This document shows positions 6,656 to 60,193 of a stretch of DNA of 64,000 nt, one piece after another. Made by a program: the position numbers and the translations under genes. Source of the stretch: Candidatus Aldehydirespirator sp. (GTDB lineage Bacteria > Actinomycetota > Acidimicrobiia > Acidimicrobiales > Aldehydirespiratoraceae); assembly GCA_965221185.1 (NCBI GenBank), contig OZ244866.1, positions 2,469,838 to 2,533,837 on the forward strand. Direction: 5' to 3'. The number at the start of each line of letters is the position of its first letter. The stretch's first letter is position 1. The notes under the pieces were generated by a model. It did not search any database. It saw only the letters and a list, made by a program, of their open reading frames with translations, and was not told where the DNA came from.

Positions 6656-7840
6656 GTGAAGGCACTGCGCTTCTCGCGCCAGGAGGCCCGCTACGCGGCC
6701 GCGGCGCTGGCTTCGCGGCTGCGGCCTGGAGCGGGGGCGGTTTGGGGGCCGCTCAAACTGATCGACGACGATCCGCCCGAGCTGCCCGGCGAGGACTGGC
6801 AGCGGGTCTACCCGAGGCTCACCGGCATCTGCGGCTCGGACCTGGCCACCATCGACGGCCGCTCGGCGCGCTACTTCGAGGACTACGTGTCGTTCCCGTT
6901 CGTGCCCGGCCACGAGATCGTGGCCGACACCGCCGACGGGCGCCGGGTGATCGTCGAGCCGGTGCTGGGGCACGCGGCGCGCGGCTTCGGCCTGCCCTAC
7001 CCGGGGGCCGCGCCCGGCGACGGCGACGACTACCGGCACCTCATGAGCGGCCATCTGTTGCCGGGGCTGCAGACCGGCTTCTGCAAGTCCACCGGCGGGG
7101 GCTGGTCCACCGAGCTGGTGGCGCACGCCTCGCAGCTCCACGACGTCCCCGACTGGATGAGCGACGAGCTGGCCGTGATGATCGAGCCGGTGGCGGGGGG
7201 CGTGCACGCCGCTCTGCGCTCCGGCGCCCGGCCGGGCGACACCGTGGCGGTGGTCGGGGCCGGGACCATGGGGCTGGTGGCGGTGGCCGCCCTGCGGGGC
7301 CTCACCGAACCGGCGTCGATAATGGTCGGGGCCCGGTACTCGACCCAGCGGGCGCTCGCGCTGGAGTTCGGCGCCGACGCGGCCGTGGAACCCGGCGAGC
7401 TGAAGCGGGCCGTTCGCCGGGCCACCAGATCGTTCATGGTCGGAGACCACCTCTCGGGGGGTGCGGACGTGGTCATCGACGCGGTGGGCTCGTCGGCCTC
7501 GCTGGCCGAGGCGCTGTCGCTGTGCCGGCCGAGGGGCCGGGTCGTGATGCTGGGGATGCCGGCCACGGTCACGGTCGAGTTGACCGGCCTGTGGCACCGG
7601 GAGGCTGAGCTGGTGGGGTGCTACGCCTACGGCACCGAGGTCCGCGCCGACGGCCGGCTCACCACCAGCTTCGAGCTGGCCATGGAGCTCGCCGGCAAGA
7701 TCGCCGTCGACCGGCTCGTGTCGGACCTGTACCCGCTCGACCGCTACGCGGACGCTCTGGGCCACGCGGCTGAGGCGGGGCGCCGCGGTGCGGTCAAGAT
7801 CGCCTTCGACATGCGAGGCGAGCGCCGCCGTGGCAACTGA
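6656..7840 (+). CDS. zinc-dependent alcohol dehydrogenase (MDR) family protein
   Basis: GTG 6656 gives MKALRF..., in frame with track ORF 5744..7840, whose 5' part is antisense to the LLM gene. Motifs GICGSDL, PGHEIVA and VVGAGTMGLVAV. GTG 6635 is an alternative start. Confidence 0.85.
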   Translation: MKALRFSRQEARYAAAALASRLRPGAGAVWGPLKLIDDDPPELPGEDWQRVYPRLTGICGSDLATIDGRSARYFEDYVSFPFVPGHEIVADTADGRRVIVEPVLGHAARGFGLPYPGAAPGDGDDYRHLMSGHLLPGLQTGFCKSTGGGWSTELVAHASQLHDVPDWMSDELAVMIEPVAGGVHAALRSGARPGDTVAVVGAGTMGLVAVAALRGLTEPASIMVGARYSTQRALALEFGADAAVEPGELKRAVRRATRSFMVGDHLSGGADVVIDAVGSSASLAEALSLCRPRGRVVMLGMPATVTVELTGLWHREAELVGCYAYGTEVRADGRLTTSFELAMELAGKIAVDRLVSDLYPLDRYADALGHAAEAGRRGAVKIAFDMRGERRRGN

Positions 7841-7943
7841 CCACACCGGCGACAGCGACAACGGCTACGACATGCGCGACGGGCGCCGCCGTGGCAACTG
7901 ACCTCGTCCGCAGCCGCAGCAACGGCTACGACGCGGTGGTGAT
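7822..7943. repeat. imperfect 61-bp tandem duplication across the ADH stop / oxidoreductase start junction
   Basis: gcgccgccgtggcaactgacc occurs at 7822 and 7883, and caacggctacgac at 7859 and 7920. The period is 61 bp. Confidence 0.85.
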
Positions 7944-9219
7944 CGGCGCAGGAGTGATCGGCGCGGCCACCGCCTTCGAGCTGGGGCGGCGGGGCCGGCG
8001 AGTGCTGTGCGTGGACAAGCTCCCCGGCGCCGGGTTCGGCTCGACCGTCAACTCGTGCGCCATCGTGCGCTTCACCTACTCCACCTACACCGGCGTGGCC
8101 ATGGCCTACGAGGGACTGCAGTACTGGCTGGAGTGGCCCGCGTACCTTGAGGCCCCCGACGAGCTGGGCATCATCGAGTACCGGCAGTGCGGGATGGCAA
8201 CCCTCAAGGACCCCGGCGGCCACTACCTCAAGGTGCTCCCCCACTTCGACGCCATCGGCGTGGCCTACGAGGAGTGGTCCACCGACGAGCTGCTCCGCCG
8301 GATGCCGATCGTCGACGCGGGGGTGTTCGGCCCGCCCAAGCGGCCCGACGACCCAGACTTCTGGGCGGACCCGACCGAGCAGCTGCCCGGAGCGGTGTTC
8401 ACCCCCGAGGCGGGCTATGTGAGCGATCCCCAGCTCACCACCCACAACCTGCAGCGGGCCGCGGAGGCCGCCGGCGCCGAGTTCCGCTTCTCCACCGCGG
8501 TGACCGCCATCGGGCGGGCCGGCGGCCGGGTGACCGGCGTGATCCTCGACGGCGGCACCACCGTGGCCGCGCCGGTCGTGGTCAACGTGGCCGGCCCGCA
8601 CTCGTATCTGATCAACCGGACAGCCGGCGTCTACGAATCGATGAACATCAAGACCCGGGCGCTGCGCCACGAGGTCCACCACACCCCGGGTCCGGCTGAC
8701 TTCAACTACGAGCGGGACGGCTTCAACATCGCCGACGACGACAACGGCATCTACTTCCGGCCCGAGACCGGCAACCACATCCTGGTGGGCAGCACAGACC
8801 CCCGCTGCGACCCCCAGGACTGGGTGGACCCCGACGGCTACGACCAGCGCCTCGCCCCGGACCAGTGGGAGGCGCAGGTGCTGCGGCTCAACCGGCGCCT
8901 GCCGTCGCTGGGCGTGCCCCACGAGCGCAAGGGCGTGGTCGACCTCTACGACGTGAGCGACGACTGGATCCCCATCTATGACCGCACCGACCTCGACGGC
9001 TTCTACGTCGCCATCGGCACCAGCGGCAACCAGTTCAAGAACGCCGGGGTAGCCGGGCACTGCATGGCCGAGCTGATCGAGGCGGTGGAGGCCGGCCACG
9101 ACCACGACCACGACCCGCTGGTGGTGGAGGGCCGCTACACCGGCCTGCCCATCGACATGGCCACCTTCAGTCGCAACCGCGAGGTCAACCCCAACTCCTC
9201 CATGTCAGTCCACGGCTGA
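7891..9219 (+). CDS. FAD-dependent oxidoreductase (DAO family)
   Basis: 442-aa ORF with an N-terminal dinucleotide-binding motif (YDAVVIGAGVIGAATAFEL). Confidence 0.85.
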   Translation: MATDLVRSRSNGYDAVVIGAGVIGAATAFELGRRGRRVLCVDKLPGAGFGSTVNSCAIVRFTYSTYTGVAMAYEGLQYWLEWPAYLEAPDELGIIEYRQCGMATLKDPGGHYLKVLPHFDAIGVAYEEWSTDELLRRMPIVDAGVFGPPKRPDDPDFWADPTEQLPGAVFTPEAGYVSDPQLTTHNLQRAAEAAGAEFRFSTAVTAIGRAGGRVTGVILDGGTTVAAPVVVNVAGPHSYLINRTAGVYESMNIKTRALRHEVHHTPGPADFNYERDGFNIADDDNGIYFRPETGNHILVGSTDPRCDPQDWVDPDGYDQRLAPDQWEAQVLRLNRRLPSLGVPHERKGVVDLYDVSDDWIPIYDRTDLDGFYVAIGTSGNQFKNAGVAGHCMAELIEAVEAGHDHDHDPLVVEGRYTGLPIDMATFSRNREVNPNSSMSVHG

Positions 9220-21821: not shown

Positions 21822-23087
21822 TCAGCCCGCGGCTAGCGCTGCGTGGATCCACTCGTCAACCTGGTCGCGGTTGTCGGCGATCCACTGGGTGGCCAGGTCG
21901 TTCGGGTGTGCGCCGTCGGCCTGCGCCACGTTGGCCAGTGACACGTCGATCACAGACAGCTTGACCGCCTCGAAGAGCGCTGCGGCCGCCGGGTTCTCGT
22001 CAAGGAAGCCGTTGCGCGCTGTGACCAGGATGTCGGCAGCGATCCAGCCGATCGGGCACTTGCCATCCGCGGTGTCGGCCGCTGACGGGCACTGGTCTGG
22101 GCCAATGGCGGCGAAGCCGCCGCTGCCGTCCTCGCCGCGCTGGTTGTGCTTCTCACCGCCTTCTTGGTTGGCAGGGTTGGAGTCGTCGAGGACGTCCTCA
22201 ACTCCTATCCAGTAGACGTTGTCGCCAGGCCGCAACTCGGTGATGTACGCCGACGGGGTCCACGTGTAGGCCACCATTGGCACGCCTGAATTGGCGTTGT
22301 CAACTGCCTGGGCGAACATAGCGTCATAGCCCGCGATCGTCTCCTGAATGTTGTCCCAGCCGGAGAAGGCGATCTGATTGAGGATGATATTGTCGCAGGT
22401 CCACGACTCGGGGCAGCCGAAGATGTCGGCTATGCCGTTGCCGGGAACGGGGTCGGTAGCGTCGAACGCGGCGAGCGCCTCCGCATTCCGGTTGAGTTCG
22501 TCCATCGTGTACACGCCGTACTCGTCTGCGAAGGACTTGGTGACCAGGAAGCCCTGCAGGCCGCCAGCGATCATCTCCTCACCAATGATGGTTACGTGAT
22601 CGCCGACTAGCGAGCCGTCGGGCATCTCACCCGCGAGCCAAGCCAAGTGGCCCGGATACCAGCTGTTGGGCCAGAAGTCCATGGCACCTTGGGCCATGGC
22701 CACGTAGCCGTTGTTGGGTCCGAGCTCCAGTTCAGCGGGATCGGACACGTTGTAGCCCAGCTCTTCCATCAACTGCCGGTAGACGTACGCTTGGAAGTAG
22801 CCGGTGCTCCAGTCGGCCCGGCCAGCAATGACGTCGACACCCTCGCCGGGCAGCGCCATCTCTTCCATTGGCTCCTCCTCGACCATTGGCTCTTCCTCGA
22901 CCATTGGCTCTTCCTCGACCATTGGCTCTTCCTCGACCATGGGCTCTTCCTCGACCATGGGCTCTTCCTCGACCGCCGGAGCCGGCTCGGCTGTCGTCCC
23001 GCCGTCGTCGTCGTCGCCGCAGGCTGCAGCGATCAGCGAGAACGCTGCGAGTAGGGCGAGCCAGATGCTCGCGTGCCTCTTCTTCAT
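21822..23087 (-). CDS. proX: glycine betaine/proline betaine ABC transporter substrate-binding lipoprotein
   Basis: Lipoprotein signal (LIAAACG), an acidic linker, then an OpuAC/ProX-type domain. GGAGGGA RBS upstream of the start. Confidence 0.85.
   Translation of the reverse strand: MKKRHASIWLALLAAFSLIAAACGDDDDGGTTAEPAPAVEEEPMVEEEPMVEEEPMVEEEPMVEEEPMVEEEPMEEMALPGEGVDVIAGRADWSTGYFQAYVYRQLMEELGYNVSDPAELELGPNNGYVAMAQGAMDFWPNSWYPGHLAWLAGEMPDGSLVGDHVTIIGEEMIAGGLQGFLVTKSFADEYGVYTMDELNRNAEALAAFDATDPVPGNGIADIFGCPESWTCDNIILNQIAFSGWDNIQETIAGYDAMFAQAVDNANSGVPMVAYTWTPSAYITELRPGDNVYWIGVEDVLDDSNPANQEGGEKHNQRGEDGSGGFAAIGPDQCPSAADTADGKCPIGWIAADILVTARNGFLDENPAAAALFEAVKLSVIDVSLANVAQADGAHPNDLATQWIADNRDQVDEWIHAALAAG
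22866..22973. repeat. 6 x 18-bp tandem repeat inside proX
   Basis: cat(t/g)ggctc(c/t)tcctcgac repeated six times. It encodes (VEEEPM)x6 in the post-lipobox linker. Confidence 0.95.
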
Positions 23088-27208: not shown

Positions 27209-28069
27209 ATGTCCGAGGCTGCAGCGAGTGCCAAGTCCGCTACCAAGCGCAAAGCGACAGGCGAGGCCAGAGCCCACACGTCGAGGCGTCAGGGCGCACC
27301 AGCGGGCACGATCGTGCGAACCCTCGACGATGAGACCGCGGCTGCCCTGACGCTGTTCAACACCTATCTGGTCGCCGACCGGGAGCAGCAGGCCCACGAG
27401 CGGGCCCTCAAGAAGGCTGAGAAGGCAAAGGACGAGGCGGCCGCCGCCGTGCGCAAGCTCAATGACAAGAAGGCGTCGTCATCTGAGACCGCCGCGGCCG
27501 AGGCCGCCTACCGCGAGGCCGCTGACGCGCTGCGCCGACTTCGCGACGGTGACCAAGCAGCCGCGCAAGACGCAAGTGATGAGGCTGAAGCCGATGCCGC
27601 CGAGGAAGAGGCTCCCGCCGCAGACACCGAGGAACAGGCACCTGCCGCCGAAGCCGACGCTGCCACCGCCGAGGATGCCGAGGCCGCCGACGGAGAGGCT
27701 CCCGCCGCAGACACCGAGGAACAGGCACCTGCCGCCGAAACTGACGCCACCGCCGAGCATGCCAACGATGAGGCGACCGCCGAGGCCGACGCCCCACACG
27801 CCGAGGAAGAAGCCCTGGCAGCCGACGCCGAGGAAGAAGCCCTGGCAGCCGACGCCGAGGATGTCGCCACCACTGACGTAGAGGCAAGCACCGAGGAAGA
27901 GGCACCAGCCGCCGAAGCGGAAGCCGCCGAAGCCGGTGCCGAGGAACAGGCACCTGCCGTCGACGGCGAGGAAGCCGCCGAAGCCCAAGAGCCCGAGTCA
28001 GTGAGGGTGGAGGCCTCCGTCGGCGACGATGACCTGGCCGGTGATGAACCGGCCGGCGTCGCTGGCTAG
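27209..28069 (+). CDS. hypothetical acidic Ala/Glu/Asp-rich repeat protein
   Basis: ATG 27209 with CATAGT 6 nt upstream. High GC at third codon positions. An 87-nt repeat at 27608-27739 encodes EAPAADTEEQAPAAE twice, and a 27-nt repeat at 27800-27853 encodes AEEEALAAD twice. The 3' end overlaps the convergent SDR gene by 72 nt. Confidence 0.5.
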   Translation: MSEAAASAKSATKRKATGEARAHTSRRQGAPAGTIVRTLDDETAAALTLFNTYLVADREQQAHERALKKAEKAKDEAAAAVRKLNDKKASSSETAAAEAAYREAADALRRLRDGDQAAAQDASDEAEADAAEEEAPAADTEEQAPAAEADAATAEDAEAADGEAPAADTEEQAPAAETDATAEHANDEATAEADAPHAEEEALAADAEEEALAADAEDVATTDVEASTEEEAPAAEAEAAEAGAEEQAPAVDGEEAAEAQEPESVRVEASVGDDDLAGDEPAGVAG

Positions 28070-39527: not shown

Positions 39528-39580
39528 CTGCCCTCCCCGCTGGTGCCGATCCTCCGCGTGATCAGCCATCCACTCCCCAC

Positions 39581-39700
39581 AGCCGGTTTCTGTGAGCAGA
39601 GGTGCCGACTAGAGCGGCTTCGTTGCACAGAATTCTCCGTAGCCGGTTTCTGTTAGGAGCGGTGCCGACTGAAGCGGCTTCGTTGCACAGATTTCGTCCA
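39581..39700. repeat. 2 x 60-bp tandem direct repeat upstream of the aldehyde dehydrogenase gene
   Basis: agccggtttctgt(g/t)ag(c/g)ag(a/c)ggtgccgact(a/g)(g/a)agcggcttcgttgcacag(a/-)atttc... at 39581-39640 and again at 39641-39700. The track ORFs covering it look spurious. Confidence 0.9.
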
Positions 39701-42168: not shown

Positions 42169-42489
42169 CTACACCATGCTGGTGACAGAACCCCCACCGA
42201 TGGCGACGAGACCGACGGAGTTGAGCCCGCCTATCGCGACCAGACCCACCGAGTTGATGCCGCCGATCGATACGAGACCGATCGAGTTGATGCCCCCTAT
42301 CGCGATCAGACCCATGGAGTTCAAGCCGCCGAGCGTGACGATGCCCATCGCATTCAGGAGGCTCAACGCGCCGATTCCCACCGCATTCAGGCGTCCGGCG
42401 GCCGCGACGCCGATCGCGGACCAGCGACTCATGGCAACGATGCCGACCCCGCAATACTCGGACGTGGCTTCATCAGACACTTCTGGCAC
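42169..42489 (-). CDS. small hydrophobic Gly/Asn repeat protein (six 11-residue repeats)
   Basis: GTG 42489. Residues 32-97 (nt 42199-42396) are GRLNAVGIGAL-SLLNAMGIVTL-GGLNSMGLIAI-GGINSIGLVSI-GGINSVGLVAI-GGLNSVGLVAI. The nucleotide units diverge at synonymous sites and third-position GC is high, which favours this frame over the two overlapping track ORFs. Confidence 0.55.
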   Translation of the reverse strand: MPEVSDEATSEYCGVGIVAMSRWSAIGVAAAGRLNAVGIGALSLLNAMGIVTLGGLNSMGLIAIGGINSIGLVSIGGINSVGLVAIGGLNSVGLVAIGGGSVTSMV

Positions 42490-42533: not shown

Positions 42534-43469
42534 TCAAGCGCCGCAGCGTTCACAGTAGTCGACCATGCGGCGACAGATGCCGGCCACCTCCCGGATGTCG
42601 TCGGTGTACTGCGACGGCTTCATGCAGAACAGGGAATAGCCCGCGGCGACCTGCTCGTCGATGGCGGCCATGGCGTCGTCGACGTCGGCGACGGCATCGG
42701 GGGAGGCGAACGTGGCCCGGGTGCCCCCGATCAGCTCAATCTCAGAAATGTCGCGCCCCGCGACGGCCAGACCCTCGGCCAGCTCGGCGAGGTCGTCGGC
42801 GGTGGGCGTGCCGAAGGGATGGAAGCCGCTGCCGTAGCGGACCATGCGCCGGATGAGCGCCGGGTGCATCCACTCGCCCCCGAACCACATGCGGGGCCCC
42901 GTCGGCCGCCAGGCCTTGGGCTCGCAATATGCATCCTCGAAGCTGAAGTACCGGCCCGAGAAGCTGGCGGGCGACCCGGCCCACAGCCGCGACATGGCCT
43001 CAAGGTGCTCATCGAGGATGCGGCCCCGCTCAGAGAACGCCACGCCGTGGGCCTCGTACTCGGCCTGCTGCCACGACACGGTGGGTTGCACCACCAGCCG
43101 GCCCTCGCACAGCAGATCGATGGTGGCCAGGTCCTTGGCCAGCAGGATGGGATGGCGCAGCGAGGGGATGATGGCTCCCGCTACCACTCGCACCCTGCTG
43201 GTGGCCGCCGCCACCGCGGCCAGGGTGGCCACCGAGCTGGGCCACGGCGTCATCGGGTCCTGGTTGCCGACGGCCGCGTACATCCGGGGATTGCTCATGA
43301 GGCCCTCGATGGCAGCGTCGGGGCCGAGCATGGTCTGCTCGCTCACCATCACAGCGTCGAACCCGCTGTCCTCGGCAATCCTGGCCAGATCCACCAGGCC
43401 CCGCATGTCGCGCGGATCCAGCATCGTGTGGTTCTCGGTCAGGATCATCAGCATCCCCGGCGCGGCCAT
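42534..43469 (-). CDS. LLM-class F420/flavin-dependent oxidoreductase
   Basis: ATG 43469 (MAAPGMLMILTENH...) was chosen by alignment with the paralogue at 56453..57409 (MAPPRLLLILTENH...). Confidence 0.85.
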   Translation of the reverse strand: MAAPGMLMILTENHTMLDPRDMRGLVDLARIAEDSGFDAVMVSEQTMLGPDAAIEGLMSNPRMYAAVGNQDPMTPWPSSVATLAAVAAATSRVRVVAGAIIPSLRHPILLAKDLATIDLLCEGRLVVQPTVSWQQAEYEAHGVAFSERGRILDEHLEAMSRLWAGSPASFSGRYFSFEDAYCEPKAWRPTGPRMWFGGEWMHPALIRRMVRYGSGFHPFGTPTADDLAELAEGLAVAGRDISEIELIGGTRATFASPDAVADVDDAMAAIDEQVAAGYSLFCMKPSQYTDDIREVAGICRRMVDYCERCGA

Positions 43470-44324: not shown

Positions 44325-44354
44325 GGTGCCACGATAATCACCCGTGCCCCGCCC

Positions 44355-44383
44355 TTGATCGTTCGGTGCCTAACGATTAGAGT
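44355..44383 (+). promoter_or_regulatory. putative promoter with embedded inverted repeat (copy 1 of a duplicated module)
   Basis: TTGATC (44355-44360), 17 nt, then TAGAGT (44378-44383), then 6 nt to GTG 44390. Inverted repeat ATCGTT-N8-AACGAT at 44358-44377. The first 16 nt are identical to 51766-51781. Confidence 0.5.
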
Positions 44384-44389
44384 TCGGGC

Positions 44390-44509
44390 GTGGCGGAGCT
44401 CCAAGGGTTCATGCATCCCCGGACCCACTGCCGGAAGGTGTTCGCAGCTGGCGACCCCGAGGATTCGGGGGCGATCGACTGCACCAGGCTGTGCTCGTGC
44501 GGTCGGTGA
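44390..44509 (+). other. 39-codon leaderless upstream ORF / relic of an acetoacetate decarboxylase-family N-terminus
   Basis: It begins VAELQGFMHPRT, compared with MAELQGFMYPRT at the ADC-family gene (51801). Its TGA (44507-44509) overlaps the in-frame GTG 44506 of the LuxR ORF (GTGA). Confidence 0.35.
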
Positions 44510-51653: not shown

Positions 51654-51765
51654 GAGGCGATTGAAGCAAGCGGCGAGGCTCGCGCCAATCGGCAGATCTA
51701 CCGATTCTTGGCTGATCACGTCCCCATCTCTGCGGTATGTCTGGCCGACGAAGTCGATTTGCCCG

Positions 51766-51794
51766 TTGATCGTTCGGTGCCAAACAATTATGCT
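51766..51794 (+). promoter_or_regulatory. putative promoter/operator (copy 2 of the duplicated module)
   Basis: TTGATC (51766-51771), 17 nt, then TATGCT (51789-51794), then 6 nt to ATG 51801. The inverted repeat is degenerate here (ATCGTT-N8-AACAAT). Confidence 0.5.
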
Positions 51795-51800
51795 CGGAGC

Positions 51801-52619
51801 ATGGCCGAGCTCCAGGGGTTCATGTACCCGCGGACGCCCACCGGGATCGCAGGCATCGTGCCAGCACCCCCCTGGCACTACTCCGGTGAAATGCTCACCG
51901 TCGAGTACCGCACCGACCCGGACCGGGTGGCCGAGCTGCTTCCCGATCCCCTGGAGCCGGCCCCGGACGACCCGGGCGCGGTGGCCATGATCTGGGCCGA
52001 GTGGCAGAGCTGCAGCAACACCTTCGAGGAGCTGCTCGACCCGGTGCGAGCCCAGTACCGGGAGGTGTTCGCGGTCGTGCGCTGCCGCTACCGGGGCTCC
52101 ACCTACAGCCGGGCGTCCTACATCTGGGTGGACAAGGACTTCGCCATGGCCCGGGGCCACGTGCAGGGCTACCCCAAGAAGATGGGCGAGATCGCCATGA
52201 CCAGGCCGGTGACGGTGGGCCGGGCCGGGCCCCGTCTGGAGCCTGGCGGGCGCTTCGGAGCCACCTTGAGCACCTGGGGCCGACGAATCGCCGAGGCCCA
52301 GTTCACGATTACCGGCACGGCCGAGACCCCCGGCTTCGTCAACGGTCATCCGATGCTGCACAGCCGCCAGATACCGGCCATCGAAGTCGACGGGGCCGAC
52401 TCGCTCGACGAGCTGGTCACCATGCGGGGCTACGACGCCGACCTCGGACCGGTGTACTCGGGCGACGCCGAGCTGATGCTGCCCGAGTGCCCCACCGAGG
52501 AGCTGCACGTCCTCCAGCCCGTCGAGATGATCGGCGGCTACTACCGCCAGGTCGGCATGTCCATGGCGGGGGGCACAACCCTGTGGGCCGCCCCCAACCC
52601 CAAGACCGGGAGCGAATAG
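51801..52619 (+). CDS. acetoacetate decarboxylase (ADC) family protein
   Basis: ATG 51801. N-terminus MAELQGFMYPRTPTGIAGIVPAPPWHYSGEMLTVEYRTDPDRV is typical of the ADC family. Confidence 0.8.
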   Translation: MAELQGFMYPRTPTGIAGIVPAPPWHYSGEMLTVEYRTDPDRVAELLPDPLEPAPDDPGAVAMIWAEWQSCSNTFEELLDPVRAQYREVFAVVRCRYRGSTYSRASYIWVDKDFAMARGHVQGYPKKMGEIAMTRPVTVGRAGPRLEPGGRFGATLSTWGRRIAEAQFTITGTAETPGFVNGHPMLHSRQIPAIEVDGADSLDELVTMRGYDADLGPVYSGDAELMLPECPTEELHVLQPVEMIGGYYRQVGMSMAGGTTLWAAPNPKTGSE

Positions 52620-52705: not shown

Positions 52706-53986
52706 TTGAGCCCGGCCGCAGCCACGTTCGTGGACGGCTACCTCGACGACCACGGCGATGACGACGCCGACCTGTCGTCGCACGACTCGTTCACCTCCGG
52801 CGTGCCCCACGCCACCTTCAGCCGGCTGCGCCGCGATGATCCAGTGCACTGGACTCCCGAGACCGACGGTTCCGGATTCTGGTCGATCACCCGCTACCAC
52901 GACGCCGTCTCCGTGAGCCGCGACGTCGAGACGTTCACCTCCACCAAGGGCATCCGCCTCGAGGAGATGGACGACGACCAGCTCGAGGCCCGCGGCACGA
53001 TGATGGAGCTCGACCCGCCCGAGCACACCCGGCTGCGCCGGCTGGTGAACCGGGGATTCACCCGCCGCACCGTCGAGTCCTACGAGGACTCCATCCGGGC
53101 CCTGGCCGCCGAGGTGCTCGACGAGGCCCTCACCGCCGGCACCTTCGACTTCGTGACCGATGTGGCGGCCAAGCTGCCCATGCGGATGCTGGGACGGCTC
53201 CTGGGCACCAGCGACTCCGACGGCCACCAGCTGGTGGAGTGGGGCGACGCCTTCCTGGGGAACAGCGACCCCGAGTTCACCACCCACGTGGTCGACACGG
53301 CCGACACCGAGGAGTTCCGGCTGATGCCGTTCCGCAGCCCGGCCGCCATCGAGGTGTTCCGGTACGCCGAGCGTGCGGCCGCGGCGCGCCGGGCCTGCCC
53401 CCGCAACGACGTGATCACCCAACTGCTGGCCCCCACCCGGGACGGCGAGCCGCTGAGCGACCTCGAGTTCAAGAACTTCTTCACCCTGCTCATCGCGGCG
53501 GGCAACGACACCACCCGCTACACGATGACTCACGGGATCGACACGATGATGCGCCATCCCAGCCTGTGGCGAGCCTGGCGGGCCGATCCCTGCCTCACCC
53601 ACACCGCGGTGGAGGAGGTTCTGCGCACCAGCGCGGTGACAATGCACTTCCGCCGCACCGCTACCCGTCCCACGGCCATCGGCGGAAAGCAAATCGCCAC
53701 CGGCGACAAGGTGGTGATGTGGTTCTGCTCCGCCAACCACGACGAAGACGGTTTCGGTGCCCCCTGGCGCTTCGATCTGGCCCGCGACCCCAACGACCAC
53801 ATGGCCTTCGGGCGCAACGGCCCGCACCTGTGCCTGGGCGCCTGGCTGGCCCGCATGGAGGCCCGGCTCGTGTTCGAGGAGCTGATGAAGCGGGTCGACC
53901 GCCTCGAGCCCGACGGCGAGCCCCAGTACCTGCGCTCCAACTTCATCGCCGGCATCAAGCACCTGCCCGTTCGGGTGGTGGCATGA
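52706..53986 (+). CDS. cytochrome P450
   Basis: TTG 52706 with GAGAGGA upstream; GTG 52661 is an alternative start. EXXR motif (VEEVLR) and heme loop FGRNGPHLCLGAWLA. Confidence 0.9.
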   Translation: MSPAAATFVDGYLDDHGDDDADLSSHDSFTSGVPHATFSRLRRDDPVHWTPETDGSGFWSITRYHDAVSVSRDVETFTSTKGIRLEEMDDDQLEARGTMMELDPPEHTRLRRLVNRGFTRRTVESYEDSIRALAAEVLDEALTAGTFDFVTDVAAKLPMRMLGRLLGTSDSDGHQLVEWGDAFLGNSDPEFTTHVVDTADTEEFRLMPFRSPAAIEVFRYAERAAAARRACPRNDVITQLLAPTRDGEPLSDLEFKNFFTLLIAAGNDTTRYTMTHGIDTMMRHPSLWRAWRADPCLTHTAVEEVLRTSAVTMHFRRTATRPTAIGGKQIATGDKVVMWFCSANHDEDGFGAPWRFDLARDPNDHMAFGRNGPHLCLGAWLARMEARLVFEELMKRVDRLEPDGEPQYLRSNFIAGIKHLPVRVVA

Positions 53987-54040
53987 TGCCCAGAGGCCGA
54001 GTGGAAGGGCCCGGCCCGCTGGGAATCGTCACAAGATGCA

Positions 54041-54090
54041 GAGCGAGGCCGTGGCCCGAGCGGCCCGTGAGCGCAGCGAACAAGAGCGGG
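54041..54090 (+). repeat. copy A of a perfect 50-bp inverted repeat
   Basis: GAGCGAGGCCGTGGCCCGAGCGGCCCGTGAGCGCAGCGAACAAGAGCGGG lies 75-124 nt upstream of the LigB-type gene start. It is the exact reverse complement of 58893-58942. Confidence 0.95.
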
Positions 54091-54164
54091 AGACACGACG
54101 CTGCACCGCGAGACGGCAGATACCCGTCCATGCTTGCTCTCAGCAGCCGCCGGGAGGTCTGACC

Positions 54165-55025
54165 ATGGGTGCGATAGTGGGTGCCGCGCTGGTGTCGCAC
54201 GTGCCGCCGCTGGTGATGTCCGAGAGCGATCGGCGGGCGCTGAACGGCGGCGAGGACACCTCCCTGTTCGCGGGTCTGCACGCGCTGCGGGCCGAGCGCC
54301 TGGCTCCCGCCGCGGCCGACACCGTGGTGGTGGTCGACACCCACTGGTTCACCACCATCGAGCACGTGATCTCCGCCCATGAGCGGCGCAAGGGACTGTT
54401 CACCTCCGACGAACTGCCCCGGGGCATGTGCGCCATGCCCTACGACATGCCCGGCGACCCCGAGCTGGCCCACGCCTTCGCGGCGGCCGCGGCCGGCCGC
54501 GACGACGCCTGGGTGACAGCCATAGACGACCCCCACCTGCCGGTGCACTACCCAACCATCAACCTGCTCGGCTTCCTGCAGGGCGACGAGCGCTGGGTGT
54601 CGATGGGCGTGTGCCAGACCGCCGAGCCAGCGGACTTCCTGCTGGCCGGCCAGCTTCTGGCCTCCGCGGTGGCCGGTCTCGACCGCCGGGTGGTGGTGCT
54701 GGCCAGCGGCGGGCTCAGCCACCGGTTCTGGCCGCTGCGGCAGTTCCGCGACCACGAGGGCGCCGATCCCGACCTCCACATCCGCACCCCCGAGGCGGCC
54801 GCGGCCGACCGCAGGGTGCTCGCTTGGATGGCCGCCGGCGACCACGCCGCCATCATCGACTTCCTGCCCGAATACTCCCGCCACGCCCCCGAGGGCTACT
54901 TCGGCCACTACCTGGTCATGGTGGGGGCGCTCGGCGGACCGGCCTGCACCGCACCGGGCGTCCAGTTCGGACAGTACGAGTCGGTGTCGGGCACAGGCCA
55001 GGCCCACGTATGGTTCGACCTGTGA
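54165..55025 (+). CDS. class III extradiol ring-cleavage dioxygenase (LigB family)
   Basis: ATG 54165 with GGGAGG 7 nt upstream. LigB-type sequence (VVVVDTHWF, LASGGLSHRF). Confidence 0.7.
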   Translation: MGAIVGAALVSHVPPLVMSESDRRALNGGEDTSLFAGLHALRAERLAPAAADTVVVVDTHWFTTIEHVISAHERRKGLFTSDELPRGMCAMPYDMPGDPELAHAFAAAAAGRDDAWVTAIDDPHLPVHYPTINLLGFLQGDERWVSMGVCQTAEPADFLLAGQLLASAVAGLDRRVVVLASGGLSHRFWPLRQFRDHEGADPDLHIRTPEAAAADRRVLAWMAAGDHAAIIDFLPEYSRHAPEGYFGHYLVMVGALGGPACTAPGVQFGQYESVSGTGQAHVWFDL

Positions 55026-55750
55026 GCAAGTCGCGGCGGGCCCTGGTGCTCGCCCACGAACCCCAGGGCACCAGCGCGCTGGTGGGCGAGCGGCTGGCGC
55101 AGCAGGGCTACGACGTGCACGAACATGTGGTGACCGCAGACCTGGACCGCCCCAACGACGCCGCGCCCTTTCCCGACGCCGCCGGCTACGACGTACTGGT
55201 GCCGATGGGCTCGATCCGCTCACTCACCAACACCGGCGAGATCGACAGCTGGATCTTCGACGAGATCGACATGATGAGAACGGCGCGACAGCGGGGCACG
55301 CCCATCCTCGGTGTGTGCTTCGGCGGCCAGCTGCTGGCTGCTTCCTTCGGTGGAGCCGTCGAGGAAGCGCCGGTCCCCGAGATCGGCTGGTACGAGGTCT
55401 ACGAACCCGACGGCTCACCCAACGGGGCGCGCAACCCGCTGGGTCCCGGGCCGTGGTTCCAGTGGCACCACGACCGTTTCACCCCTCCTGAGGAGGCAGA
55501 CGTCCTGGCCGTGAACGACAACGCCGTGCAGCTGTTCCGGCTGGACCGCTGCGTGGGCACGCAGTTCCACCCCGAGGTGACCTACGCCCACCTCGAAGGC
55601 TTCCTGTCAGGGGCAGACGAGGAGTACCTGGCCGAGCACGGCCTGAGCCGGGAGGGACTGCTGGAGAGCGTGCGTCACCACGAAGACCGCAACGCCCGGC
55701 AGTGCACCGCCCTAGTCGACTGGTTCCTCGACGAGGTGGCCGACTCTTAG
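55022..55750 (+). CDS. class I glutamine amidotransferase-like protein
   Basis: GTG 55022 forms a GTGA overlap with the LigB-type gene's stop. Nucleophile elbow GVCFGGQLL and the His/Glu region QFHPE. Confidence 0.8.
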   Translation: MSKSRRALVLAHEPQGTSALVGERLAQQGYDVHEHVVTADLDRPNDAAPFPDAAGYDVLVPMGSIRSLTNTGEIDSWIFDEIDMMRTARQRGTPILGVCFGGQLLAASFGGAVEEAPVPEIGWYEVYEPDGSPNGARNPLGPGPWFQWHHDRFTPPEEADVLAVNDNAVQLFRLDRCVGTQFHPEVTYAHLEGFLSGADEEYLAEHGLSREGLLESVRHHEDRNARQCTALVDWFLDEVADS

Positions 55751-55760
55751 GCTCCCTCCT

Positions 55761-56186
55761 GTGACCAGCCGCTGGATCGTCTTGGCCTGTGCGCTGTGCG
55801 CTGCGGTCGTGGTGGCGTCGGCGTGCTCGGGGACTAGGGCGCTCAGCTGCCCGGAGGGAACCGAGCGGTGGGTCGAATACCAGCTGTTCATGGGCCGAAG
55901 CGGCCCCGAGGGCGAGACCGTGGACGACGCCTCCTGGGACGCCTTCCTCGCGGAGGCGGTGACCCCCCGGTTCCCCGACGGGCTCACCGTGGTCGACGGA
56001 CGGGGCCAGTGGCGGGGCTCCGACGGCACCATCAAGCAGGAGCGTTCGAAGCTGCTGGTGATCCTCGCGCCCCCCGGAGGCGACGCCCGGCAACGACTGG
56101 ACGAGATATCTCAGGAGTACAGGCTCCGGTTCAGCCAGGAGGCAGTGCTCCAAACGGCTACCGAGACCTGCGCAGCCTTCCTGTAG
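55761..56186 (+). CDS. DUF3574-like lipoprotein
   Basis: Signal/lipobox (VVVASACSG). Core YQLFMGRSGPEGETVDDASWDAFLAEAVTPRFPDGLTVVDGRGQW. Confidence 0.65.
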   Translation: MTSRWIVLACALCAAVVVASACSGTRALSCPEGTERWVEYQLFMGRSGPEGETVDDASWDAFLAEAVTPRFPDGLTVVDGRGQWRGSDGTIKQERSKLLVILAPPGGDARQRLDEISQEYRLRFSQEAVLQTATETCAAFL

Positions 56187-56195
56187 CGTGGGTTC

Positions 56196-56393
56196 GTGCC
56201 GTCGAACACGACCAGAACACTGAGCCCACTGATCGCGGCGGGCATCTTCATCGCACTCTTCGTGCTGCTGACCCTGACCGGTGCGACCCTGGGTGGTGTC
56301 GGGCAATACGAGCTATTGGTCATCGCCTTGATCTCGCTCGGAGGCGCGTATCTCGCTTATCGAAGGCTCGTAAGGTCCACCGACACCGAGTAG
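56196..56393 (+). CDS. small two-TM membrane protein
   Basis: 65 aa from a GTG start, with two hydrophobic helices. It is the last gene of the plus-strand operon. Confidence 0.45.
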   Translation: MPSNTTRTLSPLIAAGIFIALFVLLTLTGATLGGVGQYELLVIALISLGGAYLAYRRLVRSTDTE

Positions 56394-56452
56394 CGGGCGG
56401 CCACGACTCGGGGCTCGCTTGAGCACGGCGCTCTTGTGAAACCCCCTGCGCA

Positions 56453-57409
56453 TCAGTTGTCATCGGCCGGAGTCTCGAGGCGGGCGGCTCGGACGACGAT
56501 GTGCTCGCACAGCGCCCGGACCTCGGAGGGGTCGTCGGTGTGCTGGGAGGGCTTCACGCAGAGCGTGGTGAACCCGGCTGCGATCTGGTCCTCGAAGTCG
56601 GCCATGGCCTCGTCGATGTCGGCGGTGTCGTCGGCGCCGGCGAAGACCGCCCGAGTGCCGCCCACCATCTCGATCCCGTCTGGGTCGCGGCCCACGGCGG
56701 CCAACCCGGCCCGAAGCGCCGCCAGATCCTCAGCGCTGGCTGCGCCGAAGGGATGGAAGCCGTCCCCGTAGGACACCAACCGGCTGAGCAGCGCCGGGTG
56801 CATCGACTGGCCGCCGAACCACATCCTGGGACGGGCCGGATCGGTCCGCCACGGCTTGGGCACGCAGTAGACGTCGTCGAAGGCGAAGCGAGGGCCGGGG
56901 TGCGAGGCCGGGGTGTGCTCCCACAGCGCGGCCATGGCCGCGAGCTGCTCGTCGAGGATGTCACCCCGCTCGGCGAAGGGCACGCCGAGGGCGTGGTACT
57001 CCTCGCGGTGCCAAGAAACTGTGGGCTGCACCACCAGCCGGCCCTCGCTCAGCCGGTCCAGGGTGGCCAGCTCCTTGGCCAGTAGCACCGGATGGCGCAG
57101 CGGGGCGATCACCGCACCCATCACCAGCCGCACTCGCCGGGTTGCCGCGGCCACCGCGGCCAGCAGCACATTGGAGCTGGGCCAGGACGTGGCCGGGTCC
57201 TGGTTGCCCGGAGCGGCGTAGGCGCGGGGGTTGACGGGTCGGCCCAGGGCTCCGGCCGAGGGGCCGAGGACGACATGCTCGCTGGCCATCACCGCGTCGA
57301 ACCCTGCCGCCTCGGCGTCCGTGGCCAGGCGCACCAAGCCGACCAGGTCGTCGGGGTCGACCAGGGTGTGGTTCTCGGTGAGGATCAGCAGCAGCCGGGG
57401 TGGAGCCAT
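56453..57409 (-). CDS. LLM-class F420/flavin-dependent oxidoreductase (paralogue of 42534..43469)
   Basis: ATG 57409, 10 nt after the GS-like stop. Collinear with the 42.5-kb paralogue (LILTENHT, RLVVQPTVSW, MWFGG). Confidence 0.85.
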   Translation of the reverse strand: MAPPRLLLILTENHTLVDPDDLVGLVRLATDAEAAGFDAVMASEHVVLGPSAGALGRPVNPRAYAAPGNQDPATSWPSSNVLLAAVAAATRRVRLVMGAVIAPLRHPVLLAKELATLDRLSEGRLVVQPTVSWHREEYHALGVPFAERGDILDEQLAAMAALWEHTPASHPGPRFAFDDVYCVPKPWRTDPARPRMWFGGQSMHPALLSRLVSYGDGFHPFGAASAEDLAALRAGLAAVGRDPDGIEMVGGTRAVFAGADDTADIDEAMADFEDQIAAGFTTLCVKPSQHTDDPSEVRALCEHIVVRAARLETPADDN

Positions 57410-57419
57410 CAAGAGCCGC

Positions 57420-58778
57420 TCAGTGGTAGGGCAGGTACTGCTTGAACTCCCATTCGGACACGGGCTCGCTGCCGGTGATCGCGTCCCAATCACCGACGAC
57501 CCCGTCGCCCGCCTGATCCGTGTAGCGGTCCCACTCGGCGCGCTTGTTGAACACGAAGTTGGCGCACAGCTCCGAGCCGAGCGCCTCGCAGAGGGCCTCG
57601 TCGGCTTCCATGTCGTCGAGGGCCGCACTCAGGCTGTGGGCGCAGTGGACGTCGGTGTCGACCTCGTCGAAGCCGTCGGTGGTCATGGGATCGGGGCATT
57701 CCAGCCCGCCGACGACGCCGAGGCGGGCCGCCTGCAGCACGGTGGCTACCAGGGTGTGGACATTGGCGGCCCCGTCGCCGATGCGGCTCTCCACGCGCAT
57801 GTGAGATCCGGGGCCCCGGGGCACCCGGTTGCCTGCGCAGCGGTGCTCCACGCCCCAGTTGGCCCAGTACCCGTTGAGCTCGCCGTGACGCAGGCGCCGG
57901 TAGGCGTTGACGGTGGGCGCAGCCAGCGCCGTCATCCCCACGTGGTGGTTGACAAGGCCCGCCATGGCGCCCCGGGCCAGGTCCGACATGCCGTGGGCGC
58001 CGCCCGCGTCCGAGAAGGCGTTCTGACCCTGCGCGTTGGCCAGCGAGAGGTTCACATGCACACCGCTGCCGGAGATGCCGGGGAAGGGCTTGCCCAGGAA
58101 GGTGAGGTCCAGGCCGAGGGGCCGGCCGGAGCGGTCGGTCGCGGTCAGCACCGTCTCGCGGGCCAGCAGCCGGAACAGGAACGCATCGTCGGCGGCCCGC
58201 ATGGCGTCGCCGTACTCGAGGGTGAGCTCGAACTGGCCCTCGTCGTACTCGGCGTTGACCGACTCCATGGCCATGCCCGAGGCCTCCGCCCGGCGCACCA
58301 CCGAGGTGATCACTCCGGCGGGATCGGTCGCCACGCCGGTGCCGTAGACCATCGCGCCGGGCGTCTCGTAGGGCCGGGGGTTCTTCAGGCCGCCGCTGAA
58401 CACGTAGGCCTCGAGCTCGATGCCGACCTTGGGGGTGTAGCCGAGGGCCTCCCAGTCGGCCACCGCCCGGCGCAGCGCCTCGCGAGGCGACACCGGCAGG
58501 GCCTCCCCGTGCATCGACAGGTCGCCGATGACGACACCGGTGGCGTCGTCATCCCAGCCCTGGCGGATGTCGCCGGTGTCGAAGCTGATCTGCGTGTCGG
58601 GCAGGCCGTCGAGCAGGTAGGCGCCGGGCGCGGGAACCATGCTGCGGTCATAGCCGAGCGCGAACACGCATACGCAGTGGCTGGTGCCCTTGTGGGCCAG
58701 CCGGGACGGCAGGTACTTGCCCCGGGCCAGCCCGAGGTGGTCGGGCCAGAGCACCCGGACGCGGTCCCAGTCGGTCAT
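57420..58778 (-). CDS. glutamine synthetase-like gamma-glutamyl ligase (GlnA family)
   Basis: ATG 58778 with GGGAGA upstream. GS catalytic motifs (NAEYDEGQFELTL, GSGVHVNLSL, NRVPRGPG...RVESR). The 46 upstream codons of the track ORF cover the repeat element. Confidence 0.85.
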   Translation of the reverse strand: MTDWDRVRVLWPDHLGLARGKYLPSRLAHKGTSHCVCVFALGYDRSMVPAPGAYLLDGLPDTQISFDTGDIRQGWDDDATGVVIGDLSMHGEALPVSPREALRRAVADWEALGYTPKVGIELEAYVFSGGLKNPRPYETPGAMVYGTGVATDPAGVITSVVRRAEASGMAMESVNAEYDEGQFELTLEYGDAMRAADDAFLFRLLARETVLTATDRSGRPLGLDLTFLGKPFPGISGSGVHVNLSLANAQGQNAFSDAGGAHGMSDLARGAMAGLVNHHVGMTALAAPTVNAYRRLRHGELNGYWANWGVEHRCAGNRVPRGPGSHMRVESRIGDGAANVHTLVATVLQAARLGVVGGLECPDPMTTDGFDEVDTDVHCAHSLSAALDDMEADEALCEALGSELCANFVFNKRAEWDRYTDQAGDGVVGDWDAITGSEPVSEWEFKQYLPYH

Positions 58779-58892
58779 GGCATCTCCCGAAATCGAGTTG
58801 GAACGCTGAACGTTTGGCCCCAAACGGTAGCCCGCACCGCGGTCGGGGTCACACTGGCCGCGCCGCCCAGCCGGCGACGGCTCTCCGTGCTG

Positions 58893-58942
58893 CCCGCTCT
58901 TGTTCGCTGCGCTCACGGGCCGCTCGGGCCACGGCCTCGCTC
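58893..58942 (-). repeat. copy B of the perfect 50-bp inverted repeat
   Basis: Reverse complement of 54041-54090. It lies 115-164 nt upstream of the GS-like start and overlaps the last codons of the acyl-CoA dehydrogenase ORF. Confidence 0.95.
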
Positions 58943-60193
58943 AGCGCCCCGCGAAGTCCATGTGGATCGCGTCCATCCGCTCGGCCTCTCGGGTGCTTCG
59001 TCCTGTTCGGGATAGAGACCGGTGCGGCCCAGGCGTTCAAGGCAGACCTCGACGCTCCAGGGCAGCATGGCCACGCCGCAGCGGGCGTCGCGATAGGCCT
59101 GCTCCAGGTAGGAGGGGCGCAGCATGCTGCGGCCCCCGCACACCTGCAGAGCCAGCGACGCCACCGCGGGGGCGCCCTCCATTACCGTGACCACCGACGA
59201 CCAGGCCCGCCGCACCTGCTCGGCACTGGGATCGATCCCGCACTCGTCCAGCACCCGGTAGGTGAGCGACTGGGCCCGATCGTACATCAGGTTCATCTGG
59301 GCCCAGCCCTGCTGCTTGATCGGGTGGTCGCGCCGGGCCGGGCCCCCGCCGCCGTCGCCTCGCAGGTAGGCGGCGGTGGCGTCGAGTATCCCCCGCATGA
59401 GGCCCAGGTAGGCGAACGACAACGTCATGTAGAAGTAGGGCCAACGGGCCGCAGCCTGGTCGAAGGCGCCCGGCGGCAGCCACTCGTTCTCGGCGGGCAC
59501 CAGGGCGTTGTCGAGCACCAGAGTGCGAGAGTCGGTGCCCCTCATGCCGAGGGGATCCCACTCCCCTTCGATGGTCGCGCCGGTCGCGTCGGAGGGCACG
59601 CCCATGAAGCGGATCCGCTCATCGCCGGGCACCAGGCAGACCACGTTGTGGATGTTCGCCGCTCCCGACAGGGAGGCGAAGATCTTGCGTCCCGTCACCC
59701 GGTAGCCGCCGCTGGCGCCCTCGACGGGCACGGCCCGGGTGGAGTAGCCGGCGGTGGCGCCTGCGGCCACTCCTTCAGAGAAGGGCTGGCTGTGGATCGT
59801 GCCGTTCTCGACGATGCCGCGACGCAGCTCGGCGCGCCGCTCCACCAGCAGGGACCGCTCGGCCGTGGTGAGATCCAGATCGTCAGCGATCTGGCCCACG
59901 AGGATGGTGGTGGCGGTGTGCATGTTGAACGTGAGCGCGGTGGTGGCGCAGTGGCGGCCCAGCTCCTCGGCCACCAGGGCGTAGCCCACGAAGTCGCCGC
60001 CGAGCCCGCCGTCGCCGGTGGGGATGCACAGCCCGAGCAGGCCGGCGTCGCGCAGGTCGGCCCAGTTCTGGGTAGGGAACGTGGCGTCGCGGTCGTGGGC
60101 CTCAGCCCGCTGCGCGAAGCGCGGCCCGAGGGCCGCCATGCGCTGCACGAGCCCGGCCCGCTCCGGGGTGAGTATGTCTGCTGCTACTCCCAC
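58913..60193 (-). CDS. acyl-CoA dehydrogenase-fold flavoprotein
   Basis: 426 aa from GTG 60193 with an ACAD-type three-domain pattern. The last roughly 32 aa (PERPSGWTRSTWTSRGAERGRGPSGP) come from read-through into the repeat module. Confidence 0.8.
   Translation of the reverse strand: MGVAADILTPERAGLVQRMAALGPRFAQRAEAHDRDATFPTQNWADLRDAGLLGLCIPTGDGGLGGDFVGYALVAEELGRHCATTALTFNMHTATTILVGQIADDLDLTTAERSLLVERRAELRRGIVENGTIHSQPFSEGVAAGATAGYSTRAVPVEGASGGYRVTGRKIFASLSGAANIHNVVCLVPGDERIRFMGVPSDATGATIEGEWDPLGMRGTDSRTLVLDNALVPAENEWLPPGAFDQAAARWPYFYMTLSFAYLGLMRGILDATAAYLRGDGGGGPARRDHPIKQQGWAQMNLMYDRAQSLTYRVLDECGIDPSAEQVRRAWSSVVTVMEGAPAVASLALQVCGGRSMLRPSYLEQAYRDARCGVAMLPWSVEVCLERLGRTGLYPEQDEAPERPSGWTRSTWTSRGAERGRGPSGP

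Follow-up and report, generated by a model that had tools for sequence, protein, structure and literature searches.

A perfect inverted repeat in a catabolic gene cluster of Candidatus Aldehydirespirator as the probable core of two copies of a small IS5-type transposable element

The repeat pair and its gene setting

A stretch of 64,000 nucleotides from the genome of Candidatus Aldehydirespirator sp. (contig OZ244866.1 of assembly GCA_965221185.1; hereafter the window) carries, on either side of a 4.9-kb segment of genes, the two arms of a perfect 50-nt inverted repeat, namely GAGCGAGGCCGTGGCCCGAGCGGCCCGTGAGCGCAGCGAACAAGAGCGGG and its exact reverse complement (copies A and B; coordinates in Table 1). 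We present evidence that this 50-mer pair is, very probably, the middle of two copies of a non-coding transposable element of the miniature inverted-repeat class (MITE) that would be served by an IS5-type transposase and has spread in sponge-associated Acidimicrobiales. The repeat had been noticed in a first-pass annotation of the window, and it is real: only the 2 matches are found in the window at up to 3 mismatches, with 0 in 100 shuffles and a chance expectation of 0, and a repeat search of the window extends the inverted pair to 60 nt at 93% identity. The gene calls of that annotation around both copies are borne out by Pfam. On the forward strand an ADC-like gene and a P450 gene ending at 53986 lie upstream of copy A, and a LigB gene starting at 54165 and then a GATase gene lie downstream of it. 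The reverse strand carries a luciferase-like monooxygenase gene, a GS-like gene starting at 58778, an ACAD-fold open reading frame (ORF) ending at 58913, an alpha/beta hydrolase gene and a second P450 gene. The spacing reported earlier likewise holds, with 75 nt between copy A and LigB and 115 nt between copy B and the GS-like gene, and so does the further conserved block situated about 52 nt upstream of either copy (AGAGGCCGAGTGGAAGGG, 53992-54009; AGAGGCCGAGCGGATGGA, 58972-58989 on the reverse strand), which is, in the element described below, the left terminal inverted repeat. The 50-mer, which forms the core of this element, contains three direct GAGCGG/GAGCGC motifs, and the terminal motif recurs in it in interrupted form (GAGGCCG...AGCGG). 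A coding N-terminal extension common to the LigB and GS-like proteins was excluded as its explanation, as the 50-mer falls in different frames of the two genes. An exact-protein look-up with the LigB product gave no record, and a plasmid search with the 116-nt module gave one irrelevant 27-nt match only.

Empty sites at orthologous loci

A search with the GS-like protein provided three orthologous loci (L001, L003 and L005, at 90%, 88% and 86% protein identity), in which the order and orientation of the genes are those of the window, with the exception that L003 is without the hydrolase and ACAD genes. When read side by side with these loci, the window consists of the orthologous sequence plus an added block at each of the two sites: the gap between P450 and LigB is 178 nt in the window as against 50, 28 and 0 nt in L001, L003 and L005, respectively, and that between the ACAD and GS-like genes is about 165 nt as against 83 and 67 nt in L001 and L005, respectively. 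These two loci have no insertion at either site; L003 has none between P450 and LigB and carries a related copy of the core upstream of the GS-like gene, and L005 has the same core in a different intergenic gap. At the first site, which reads GATGCC-CAG-A in L001, the added block comes after GCATGATGCC-CA, 6 nt past the P450 stop. At the second, copy B sits within the last codons of the ACAD gene, whose ancestral end, GACGAAGC.CC.GT.TGA, is uninterrupted in L001 and L005. Their ACAD proteins end in ...YPEQDEAPV* and ...YPEHDEAPV*, respectively, and in the window the ancestral ...YPEQDEAPV* has become ...YPEQDEAP-ERPSGWTRSTWTSRGAERGRGPSGP*, with 25 foreign residues. The earlier observations that the ACAD ORF runs into the module and stops at a TGA within the 50-mer, and that the module looks acquired at this place, are both upheld.

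The two copies differ in completeness (Table 1). In copy A, nhmmer covers positions 19-195 of the family model (E = 1.1e-32), the terminal repeats match each other at 12/18 positions, and the flanking triplets CCA/TCA agree at 2/3 bases, the flanks being T/C-N-A throughout the family. Copy B retains the left terminus, the spacer and the core, and has no recognisable right arm; here nhmmer covers model positions 38-138 only (E = 1.4e-25). An ATG at 54036, which is owed to copy A, opens an ORF (54036-55025) that crosses the MITE, enters LigB in frame and has 329 codons, versus 286 from the conserved LigB start at 54165; an automatic gene caller could hence wrongly lengthen LigB by 43 residues.

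Table 1. Coordinates in the window of the two element copies and their parts
Feature	Position	Strand	Remark
Copy A	53993..54139	+	complete 147-nt MITE, long-left-arm subtype, sense, in the P450-LigB gap
Left terminal inverted repeat, copy A	53993..54010	+	GAGGCCGAGTGGAAGGGC
Conserved core, copy A	54041..54090	+	the 50-mer
Right terminal inverted repeat, copy A	54121..54139	+	TACCCGTCCATGCTTGCTC; 12/19 against the family consensus CACCTATCCGCGCACGCTC
Left flanking trinucleotide, copy A	53990..53992	.	CCA, putative target duplication
Right flanking trinucleotide, copy A	54140..54142	.	TCA
Copy B	58858..58988	-	truncated/degenerate MITE, about 131 nt, sense, upstream of the GS-like gene
Left terminal inverted repeat, copy B	58971..58988	-	GAGGCCGAGCGGATGGAC
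Conserved core, copy B	58893..58942	-	the other arm of the 50-mer pair
3' end of the ACAD-fold ORF encoded by copy B	58913..58990	-	

The borders of this gene cluster are rearrangement-prone in L003 and L005. In L005 an RHH/PIN toxin-antitoxin-like gene pair (8085-8734) separates the hydrolase gene from the ACAD gene, and an unrelated DDE transposase is found about 5 kb downstream.

A dispersed family with terminal repeats and target duplications

With 21 bases of the core as the query, a scan of species-representative genomes recovered at least 114 stretches in about 47 Acidimicrobiales genomes. The matches listed come essentially all from metagenome-assembled genomes of Acidimicrobiia, including Ca. 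Aldehydirespirator and Ca. Poriferisodalis, two genera placed in separate families of Acidimicrobiales, along with Acidimicrobiaceae bins from sponges and others, and among them several genomes have 5-7 stretches each. An nhmmer profile built from these copies detected 181 copies in the fetched loci (numbered with the prefix L) and the window together, the window having 2 only. The exact 50-mer recurs in 18 other copies at 17 other loci from other species, and its inner 44-mer in 72 others; hence the identity of copies A and B is a property of the family, every copy of which, across dozens of Acidimicrobiales species, retains the core of about 50 nt, and not of the pair. The argument drawn earlier from their 100% identity therefore stands in so far as it pointed to constraint on the 50-mer, which is family-wide, and lapses in so far as it set this pair apart.

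The element is non-coding and about 140-155 nt long, with a spread of about 120-160 nt among family members, which is too short to encode a transposase. A typical copy has the form T-N-A / GAGGCCGAGCGGATAGGCG - variable spacer - GCGAGGCCGTGGCCCGAGCGGCCCGTGAGCGCAGCGAACAAGAGCGGGA - variable right arm - CACCTATCCGCGCaCGCTC / T-N-A, where GAGGCCGAGCGGATAGGCG and CACCTATCCGCGCaCGCTC are the left and right terminal inverted repeats (short form GAGGCCGAGCGGATAGG / CCTATCCGCGCaCGCTC). These are imperfect, with the consensus left end AGAGGCCGAGCGGATAGGCGAG and the reverse-complemented right end AGAGCGTGCGCGGATAGGTGAG agreeing at about 17/22 positions, and column conservation across the family is 80-99% in the left terminus and 50-90% in the right. 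Short, medium and long subtypes can be distinguished by the left spacer, both window copies being long. The left and right arms of one and the same copy are complementary at 9.86/18 positions versus 9.52/18 for arms of different copies, with 24 G:T and 33 A:C mismatches; the ends act as terminal repeats at the level of DNA, not as an RNA stem.

The 3-mers flanking the element are identical in 13/64 copies, where 3.8 are expected and the maximum in 10,000 shuffles was 12. This count is likely to be an underestimate, given the crude automatic placement of the right end. The flanking triplets are mostly TAA, TTA, CTA, TGA and TCA. Among the listed copies both TTA/TTA and TAA/TAA pairs occur and no TTA/TAA pair, which indicates a direct duplication rather than an extension of the inverted repeat. 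Many copies directly adjoin a stop codon; TAA and TGA fit the T-N-A target, and this target is otherwise rare in these GC-rich genomes.

Elements with the same terminal repeats and no core also occur (L025 7597-7688, L037 6190-6260 and L006 6179-6216), one of them being 92 nt long and another an end-to-end fusion of about 40 nt; the ends and the core are thus separable modules. A second repeated motif, GGTGGATYCAGGCT, adjoins MITE and insertion sequence (IS) insertion points in L009, L011, L018, L024, L025 and L124, frequently in inverted pairs with a spacing of about 245 nt (L025 975-988, 1221-1234, 7690-7703 and 7935-7948), and is probably another small element whose ends offer a TAA target. 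Inverted left ends spaced 2.4-3.3 kb apart in L083, L086, L087 and L093 looked like possible full-length elements; the two that were examined, in L083 and L086, have ordinary genes between their ends (hydrolases, an ABC-3 permease and an SDR protein) and were rejected.

An autonomous partner of the IS5 family

A search for end motifs without the core led to a 280-aa ORF in L068 (7092-7934, reverse strand) that is immediately followed by a right end, CACCTATCCGCTGACGCTC/TAA. This ORF scores 139.9 bits against the NCBIfam model NF033580 transpos_IS5_3 (cut-off 110) and contains the Pfam domains DUF4096 and DDE_Tnp_1. Homologues of this transposase are common in Acidimicrobiales and Ca. Poriferisodalis, many of them on contigs of about 970 bp. 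Five identical copies of such an IS (L121 and L123-L126), three of them on one chromosome, are 968 bp long (L124:1400-2367), have a single 281-aa ORF and the ends GAGGCCGCGCCAATAGGCG / CACCTATTGGCGCATCCTC, and are flanked by perfect TAA/TTA duplications in 5/5 cases. The IS in L120, with the ends GAGGCCGCGCGGATAGGCG / CGCCTATCCGCTGACGCTC, has a TTA duplication, which brings the total to 6/6 IS copies. The ends and the 3-bp duplication of this IS are those of the MITE. The IS1031 group of the IS5 family is characterized by a single ORF and a 3-nt target (PMC2516522), and the partner IS, with about 0.8-1 kb, a single ORF, a 3-bp duplication and a match to a curated DDE model, conforms to IS1031/IS427-like elements. 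A DDE transposase of L005 (18795-20477) was likewise considered as the partner and rejected, as the end motif of the family was not found beside it.

Taken together, the family is: 1) small; 2) bounded by terminal inverted repeats; 3) flanked by target duplications; 4) dispersed; 5) polymorphic for presence and absence at orthologous sites; and 6) matched at its ends by an IS. As this fits the usual definition (PMC3184786), the module of the window is classified as a MITE, and of the possibilities raised in the first-pass annotation it is the small mobile element that is sustained by the dispersed repeat, the terminal repeats, the target duplications, the empty orthologous sites and the IS with the same ends. 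The MITE would be moved in trans by the DDE transposase of the IS5-family IS of about 970 bp, of the IS1031/IS427 type, and mobilisation by an IS5-type transposase is most likely. One insertion, 6 nt past the P450 stop, widened the short and originally probably coupled P450-LigB junction to its present 178 nt; the other, copy B, in the last codons of the ACAD gene, added the foreign tail of 25 residues, has subsequently lost its right end, and is probably immobile. Both insertions may have had an effect on the expression of the two operons.

Several observations weigh against this reconstruction and have to be set beside it. The triplets that flank copy A agree at two of three positions only, and the junctions of copy B (CGA/GAGGCC ... 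GCGCGG/CCAGTGTGA) present no clean T-N-A duplication. Neither the 64-kb window nor the other MITE loci contain such a transposase, for which reason we infer mobilisation in trans. The core is absent from the IS, so that the MITE is no simple internal deletion derivative of that IS. Further, conservation of the right terminal repeat falls far below that of the left one and of the core, which is odd if recognition by the transposase were the sole constraint, and the transposition that we propose is known from its footprints alone.

Alternative readings of the repeat pair

The sense orientation of both copies at 75-115 nt upstream of the next gene, and the strong conservation of the core, are what one would expect of a dedicated cis-regulatory leader, such as a riboswitch-like RNA or an operator array co-regulating the LigB and GS-like operons. 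We nevertheless regard such a leader as very unlikely, because the module is absent at both sites in L001 and L005 and at the P450-LigB site in L003, and because about 180 copies are found at unrelated loci in every intergenic context. When the strand of neighbouring genes was judged by a local frame test (codon-position GC) that had been checked on the window, and clustered copies were removed, co-directional gene pairs had 47 copies in sense and 19 in antisense orientation, and 23 copies lay between divergent and 21 between convergent genes; the neighbours looked at are unrelated, including hydrolases, a transporter, an SDR protein and a phosphoglucomutase. Rfam has 0 matches at gathering thresholds over the window and chance-level ones only at E <=10 for copy A and a typical copy. 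RNAalifold on 22 long-arm copies returned a covariation term of -0.27 with 0/19 pairs compensatory, and on alignments of 32 and 26 copies it gave no evidence of RNA structure either. The two leaders of the window fold no better than shuffles (z -1.7 and -1.1). For the consensus element, folding gives one long hairpin (z about -2), which is to be expected wherever the ends of an element are inverted repeats; simple scans of 53.8-59.2 kb found no sigma-70-like promoter or intrinsic terminator. The shared regulatory RNA or protein-binding array envisaged in the first-pass annotation is hence refuted by the criterion set there, namely numerous copies at unrelated places that have terminal repeats and target duplications, or want of the module in orthologous clusters. 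Its proposal that the repeats are recombination sites for a programmed inversion of the 4.9-kb segment, by which upstream genes would be swapped between the downstream operons, finds no support. The repeat, perfect over 50 nt, is indeed inverted, and the downstream operons would stay sense after inversion, but the arrangement in the window equals that in L001, L003 and L005, which lack the repeat pair, and is thus the ancestral one. Moreover, no recombinase is present among the genes identified by Pfam at 51.1-63.3 kb, and other inverted pairs of the family (L086, L083) bracket ordinary unrelated genes, as the density of copies predicts. We thus attach very little probability to a programmed switch, although rare homologous inversion between the copies may occur.

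Were the stretch 53993-58988 a composite transposon that brought in the LigB, GATase, luciferase-like and GS-like genes with the left termini of the MITEs pointing outward, then AGAGGCCGAGTGGAAGGG and AGAGGCCGAGCGGATGGA would be its outward-facing ends, which do form an inverted pair, and pairs of MITEs can, by the account of Poirel et al. 2009 given in PMC3184786, move the DNA between them. Relatives without the MITEs have, however, these genes at the same position and in the same order, and the triplets outside the ends, CCA and (on the forward strand) TCG, constitute no direct duplication; this synteny, combined with the want of a duplication outside the pair, excludes such a transposon for practical purposes, and we consider it exceedingly improbable. 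An element of the REP/REPIN type moved by a RAYT tyrosine transposase would likewise be short, GC-rich, intergenic, high in copy number and sometimes clustered. It would be hard to reconcile with a core that forms no significant hairpin (z 0.10 and 0.86), with terminal inverted repeats acting over a long range and with 3-bp target duplications, and, as a DDE IS with the same ends exists, this origin is extremely doubtful. Hence, we retain the MITE with its IS5-type partner as the explanation of the pair.

The conserved core

What the MITE does not by itself account for is its core. Even in 49 copies that stood outside the selection by the search pattern, the core and the 13-nt left terminus are conserved at 90-99% per column, as against only 30-80% for the spacers and for the right arm with its terminal repeat. 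In five comparisons of orthologous insertions between species, with both flanks homologous, the core is identical at 42-46 of 46 positions, as compared to 35-80% for the spacers, 34-73% for the right arms and 44-95% for the flanks. The core is foreign to the IS and yet more conserved than the right end and the coding flanks. Its conservation may reflect additional transposase-binding sites selected on the element, a host-protein or RNA signal selected on the cell, or concerted evolution combined with horizontal spread among co-resident symbionts.

The second of these would be an addition to the MITE reading rather than its replacement, with the MITE spreading a functional host-protein site or short RNA signal, and we see it as possible, if on balance doubtful. 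The contrast in conservation between the core and the rest of the element, both across the family and in the orthologous insertions, its absence from the partner IS and its three direct motifs speak for such a site, as does the excess of sense over antisense copies in co-directional gene pairs (47 vs 19, p = 7.6e-4, clustered copies removed); other bacterial MITEs are known to carry IHF sites and promoters (PMC3184786). On the opposite side, the core folds no better than shuffled sequence, shows neither compensatory pairs nor an Rfam match, and has no promoter-like or terminator-like site in simple scans, and its copies adjoin unrelated genes in convergent, divergent and co-directional gaps alike. 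Its conservation could also have other causes, namely competence for transposition through extra transposase sites, or gene conversion together with horizontal spread of the IS and the MITE; in this regard, the transposases are 75-87% identical across families versus about 60% for the GS-like orthologues. The more specific proposition that the core is a putative functional site, for instance a bound GAGCGG array or an RNA signal, kept by purifying selection in at least two families of Acidimicrobiales, we rate as rather unlikely. If it were true, the IS5-type MITE would serve as mobile wiring, by which numerous operons of sponge symbionts, the two of the window among them, come under one factor.

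Two further features of the core deserve mention. It forms tandem arrays, such as one in L103 (4936-5203; OY759762.1) in which a 44-nt unit is present in 6.1 copies with 99% identity, and other arrays with periods of 43-46 nt or 71 nt occur in L117, L111, L112, L109 and L093. Also, in a pair of orthologous insertions from closely related sponge-derived genomes (L076 661-818 and L107 5476-5629) the flanks are 93-95% identical and the core 46/46, and the left spacer is identical at 17/41 positions only, which suggests that the spacer was replaced by recombination with another copy.

Other repeats and duplications in the window

Unconnected with the MITE, the window contains an 84-nt direct repeat of 76% identity (44352-44435 and 51763-51846), whose best-conserved part, TTGATCGTTCGGTGCC(T/A)AAC(G/A)ATTA, is an imperfect palindrome just upstream of two paralogous ADC-like genes (MAELQGFM...). 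As a shared operator or promoter this repeat is a better candidate than the 50-mer. On the reverse strand, two luciferase-like monooxygenase genes (42586-43469 and 56520-57409) have 72-78% DNA identity at a constant offset of about 13.94 kb; thus, part of the catabolic cluster has been duplicated within the window. Tandem repeats unrelated to the 50-mer are present at 22842-23003 (18 nt x 7), 42193-42324 (33 nt x 4), 39574-39693 (60 nt x 2) and 7801-7922 (61 nt x 2), and another at 27587-27985, with 87-nt units x 5, is probably a coding repeat rich in Ala and Glu and acidic in character.

Implications

The repeat pair of the window is not to be read as a regulatory or switching device, but as two transposon footprints, one of which rewrote the C-terminus of an ACAD-fold protein, while the other split a tight junction between P450 and LigB. 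A literature search found no description of MITEs or repetitive extragenic palindromic (REP) elements in Acidimicrobiia, nor of this element; the MITE family and its IS5-type partner, resident in uncultured and mostly sponge-associated Acidimicrobiales, are apparently undescribed. As ORFs become extended into the element, the MITE will confuse gene calling in these genomes, as well as assembly and the discovery of repeats and 'motifs'. The core, foreign to the IS and prone to tandem expansion, is worth specialist follow-up.

Comparison with known systems

With the IS1031/IS427 type of the IS5 family the partner IS shares its length of 968 bp, single ORF, DDE domains and 3-bp duplication; the interior of the MITE, in contrast, is not IS-derived, and the placing of the partner within a subgroup of IS5 is provisional. 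REP repeats can bind host proteins, and they are hairpins without target duplications that are moved by a Y1 transposase. REP/BIME and REPIN-RAYT systems are comparable in that they are short, GC-rich, extragenic, high in copy number and conserved beyond a single strain, and differ from the element described here in its DDE-type ends, its duplications and the lack of a significant hairpin in its conserved part. The BOX elements of pneumococci are built as boxA-boxB(n)-boxC, with end modules and a repeatable middle. A similar modularity is seen here in the 44-46-nt core, which expands in tandem. BOX is regarded as a tandem repeat array that is non-autonomous and thought to be moved by an IS (PMC3184786); it has no sequence similarity to the present element, and stable RNA structures are predicted for BOX, with no such signal in our case.

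The MITE family described here uses a 3-bp T-N-A target, as do the Tourist elements of the eukaryotic PIF/Harbinger group. Tourist MITEs duplicate TAA or TTA. Canonical Harbinger elements, which are related to IS5, make 3-bp duplications as well (PMC12730594). The bracketing of genes by two MITEs recalls integron mobilisation units and MITE-flanked integrons (Poirel 2009; Gillings 2009; as summarised in PMC3184786). In distinction from these, the genes bracketed in the window are ancestral and no duplication lies outside the pair, so that the bracketing is incidental. When set against the MITEs of other bacteria, the family stands out by a 3-bp T-N-A target in place of TA, and by having the core and the left terminus, rather than both termini, as its most conserved parts. 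In the remaining respects it resembles the Correia/CREE elements of Neisseria, RUP, ERIC and Nezha (PMC3184786), being under 200 bp long and devoid of a transposase gene, with terminal repeats around a core, target duplications and many intergenic copies, with ends that match those of an IS, and with an ability to insert at the ends of genes and alter them.

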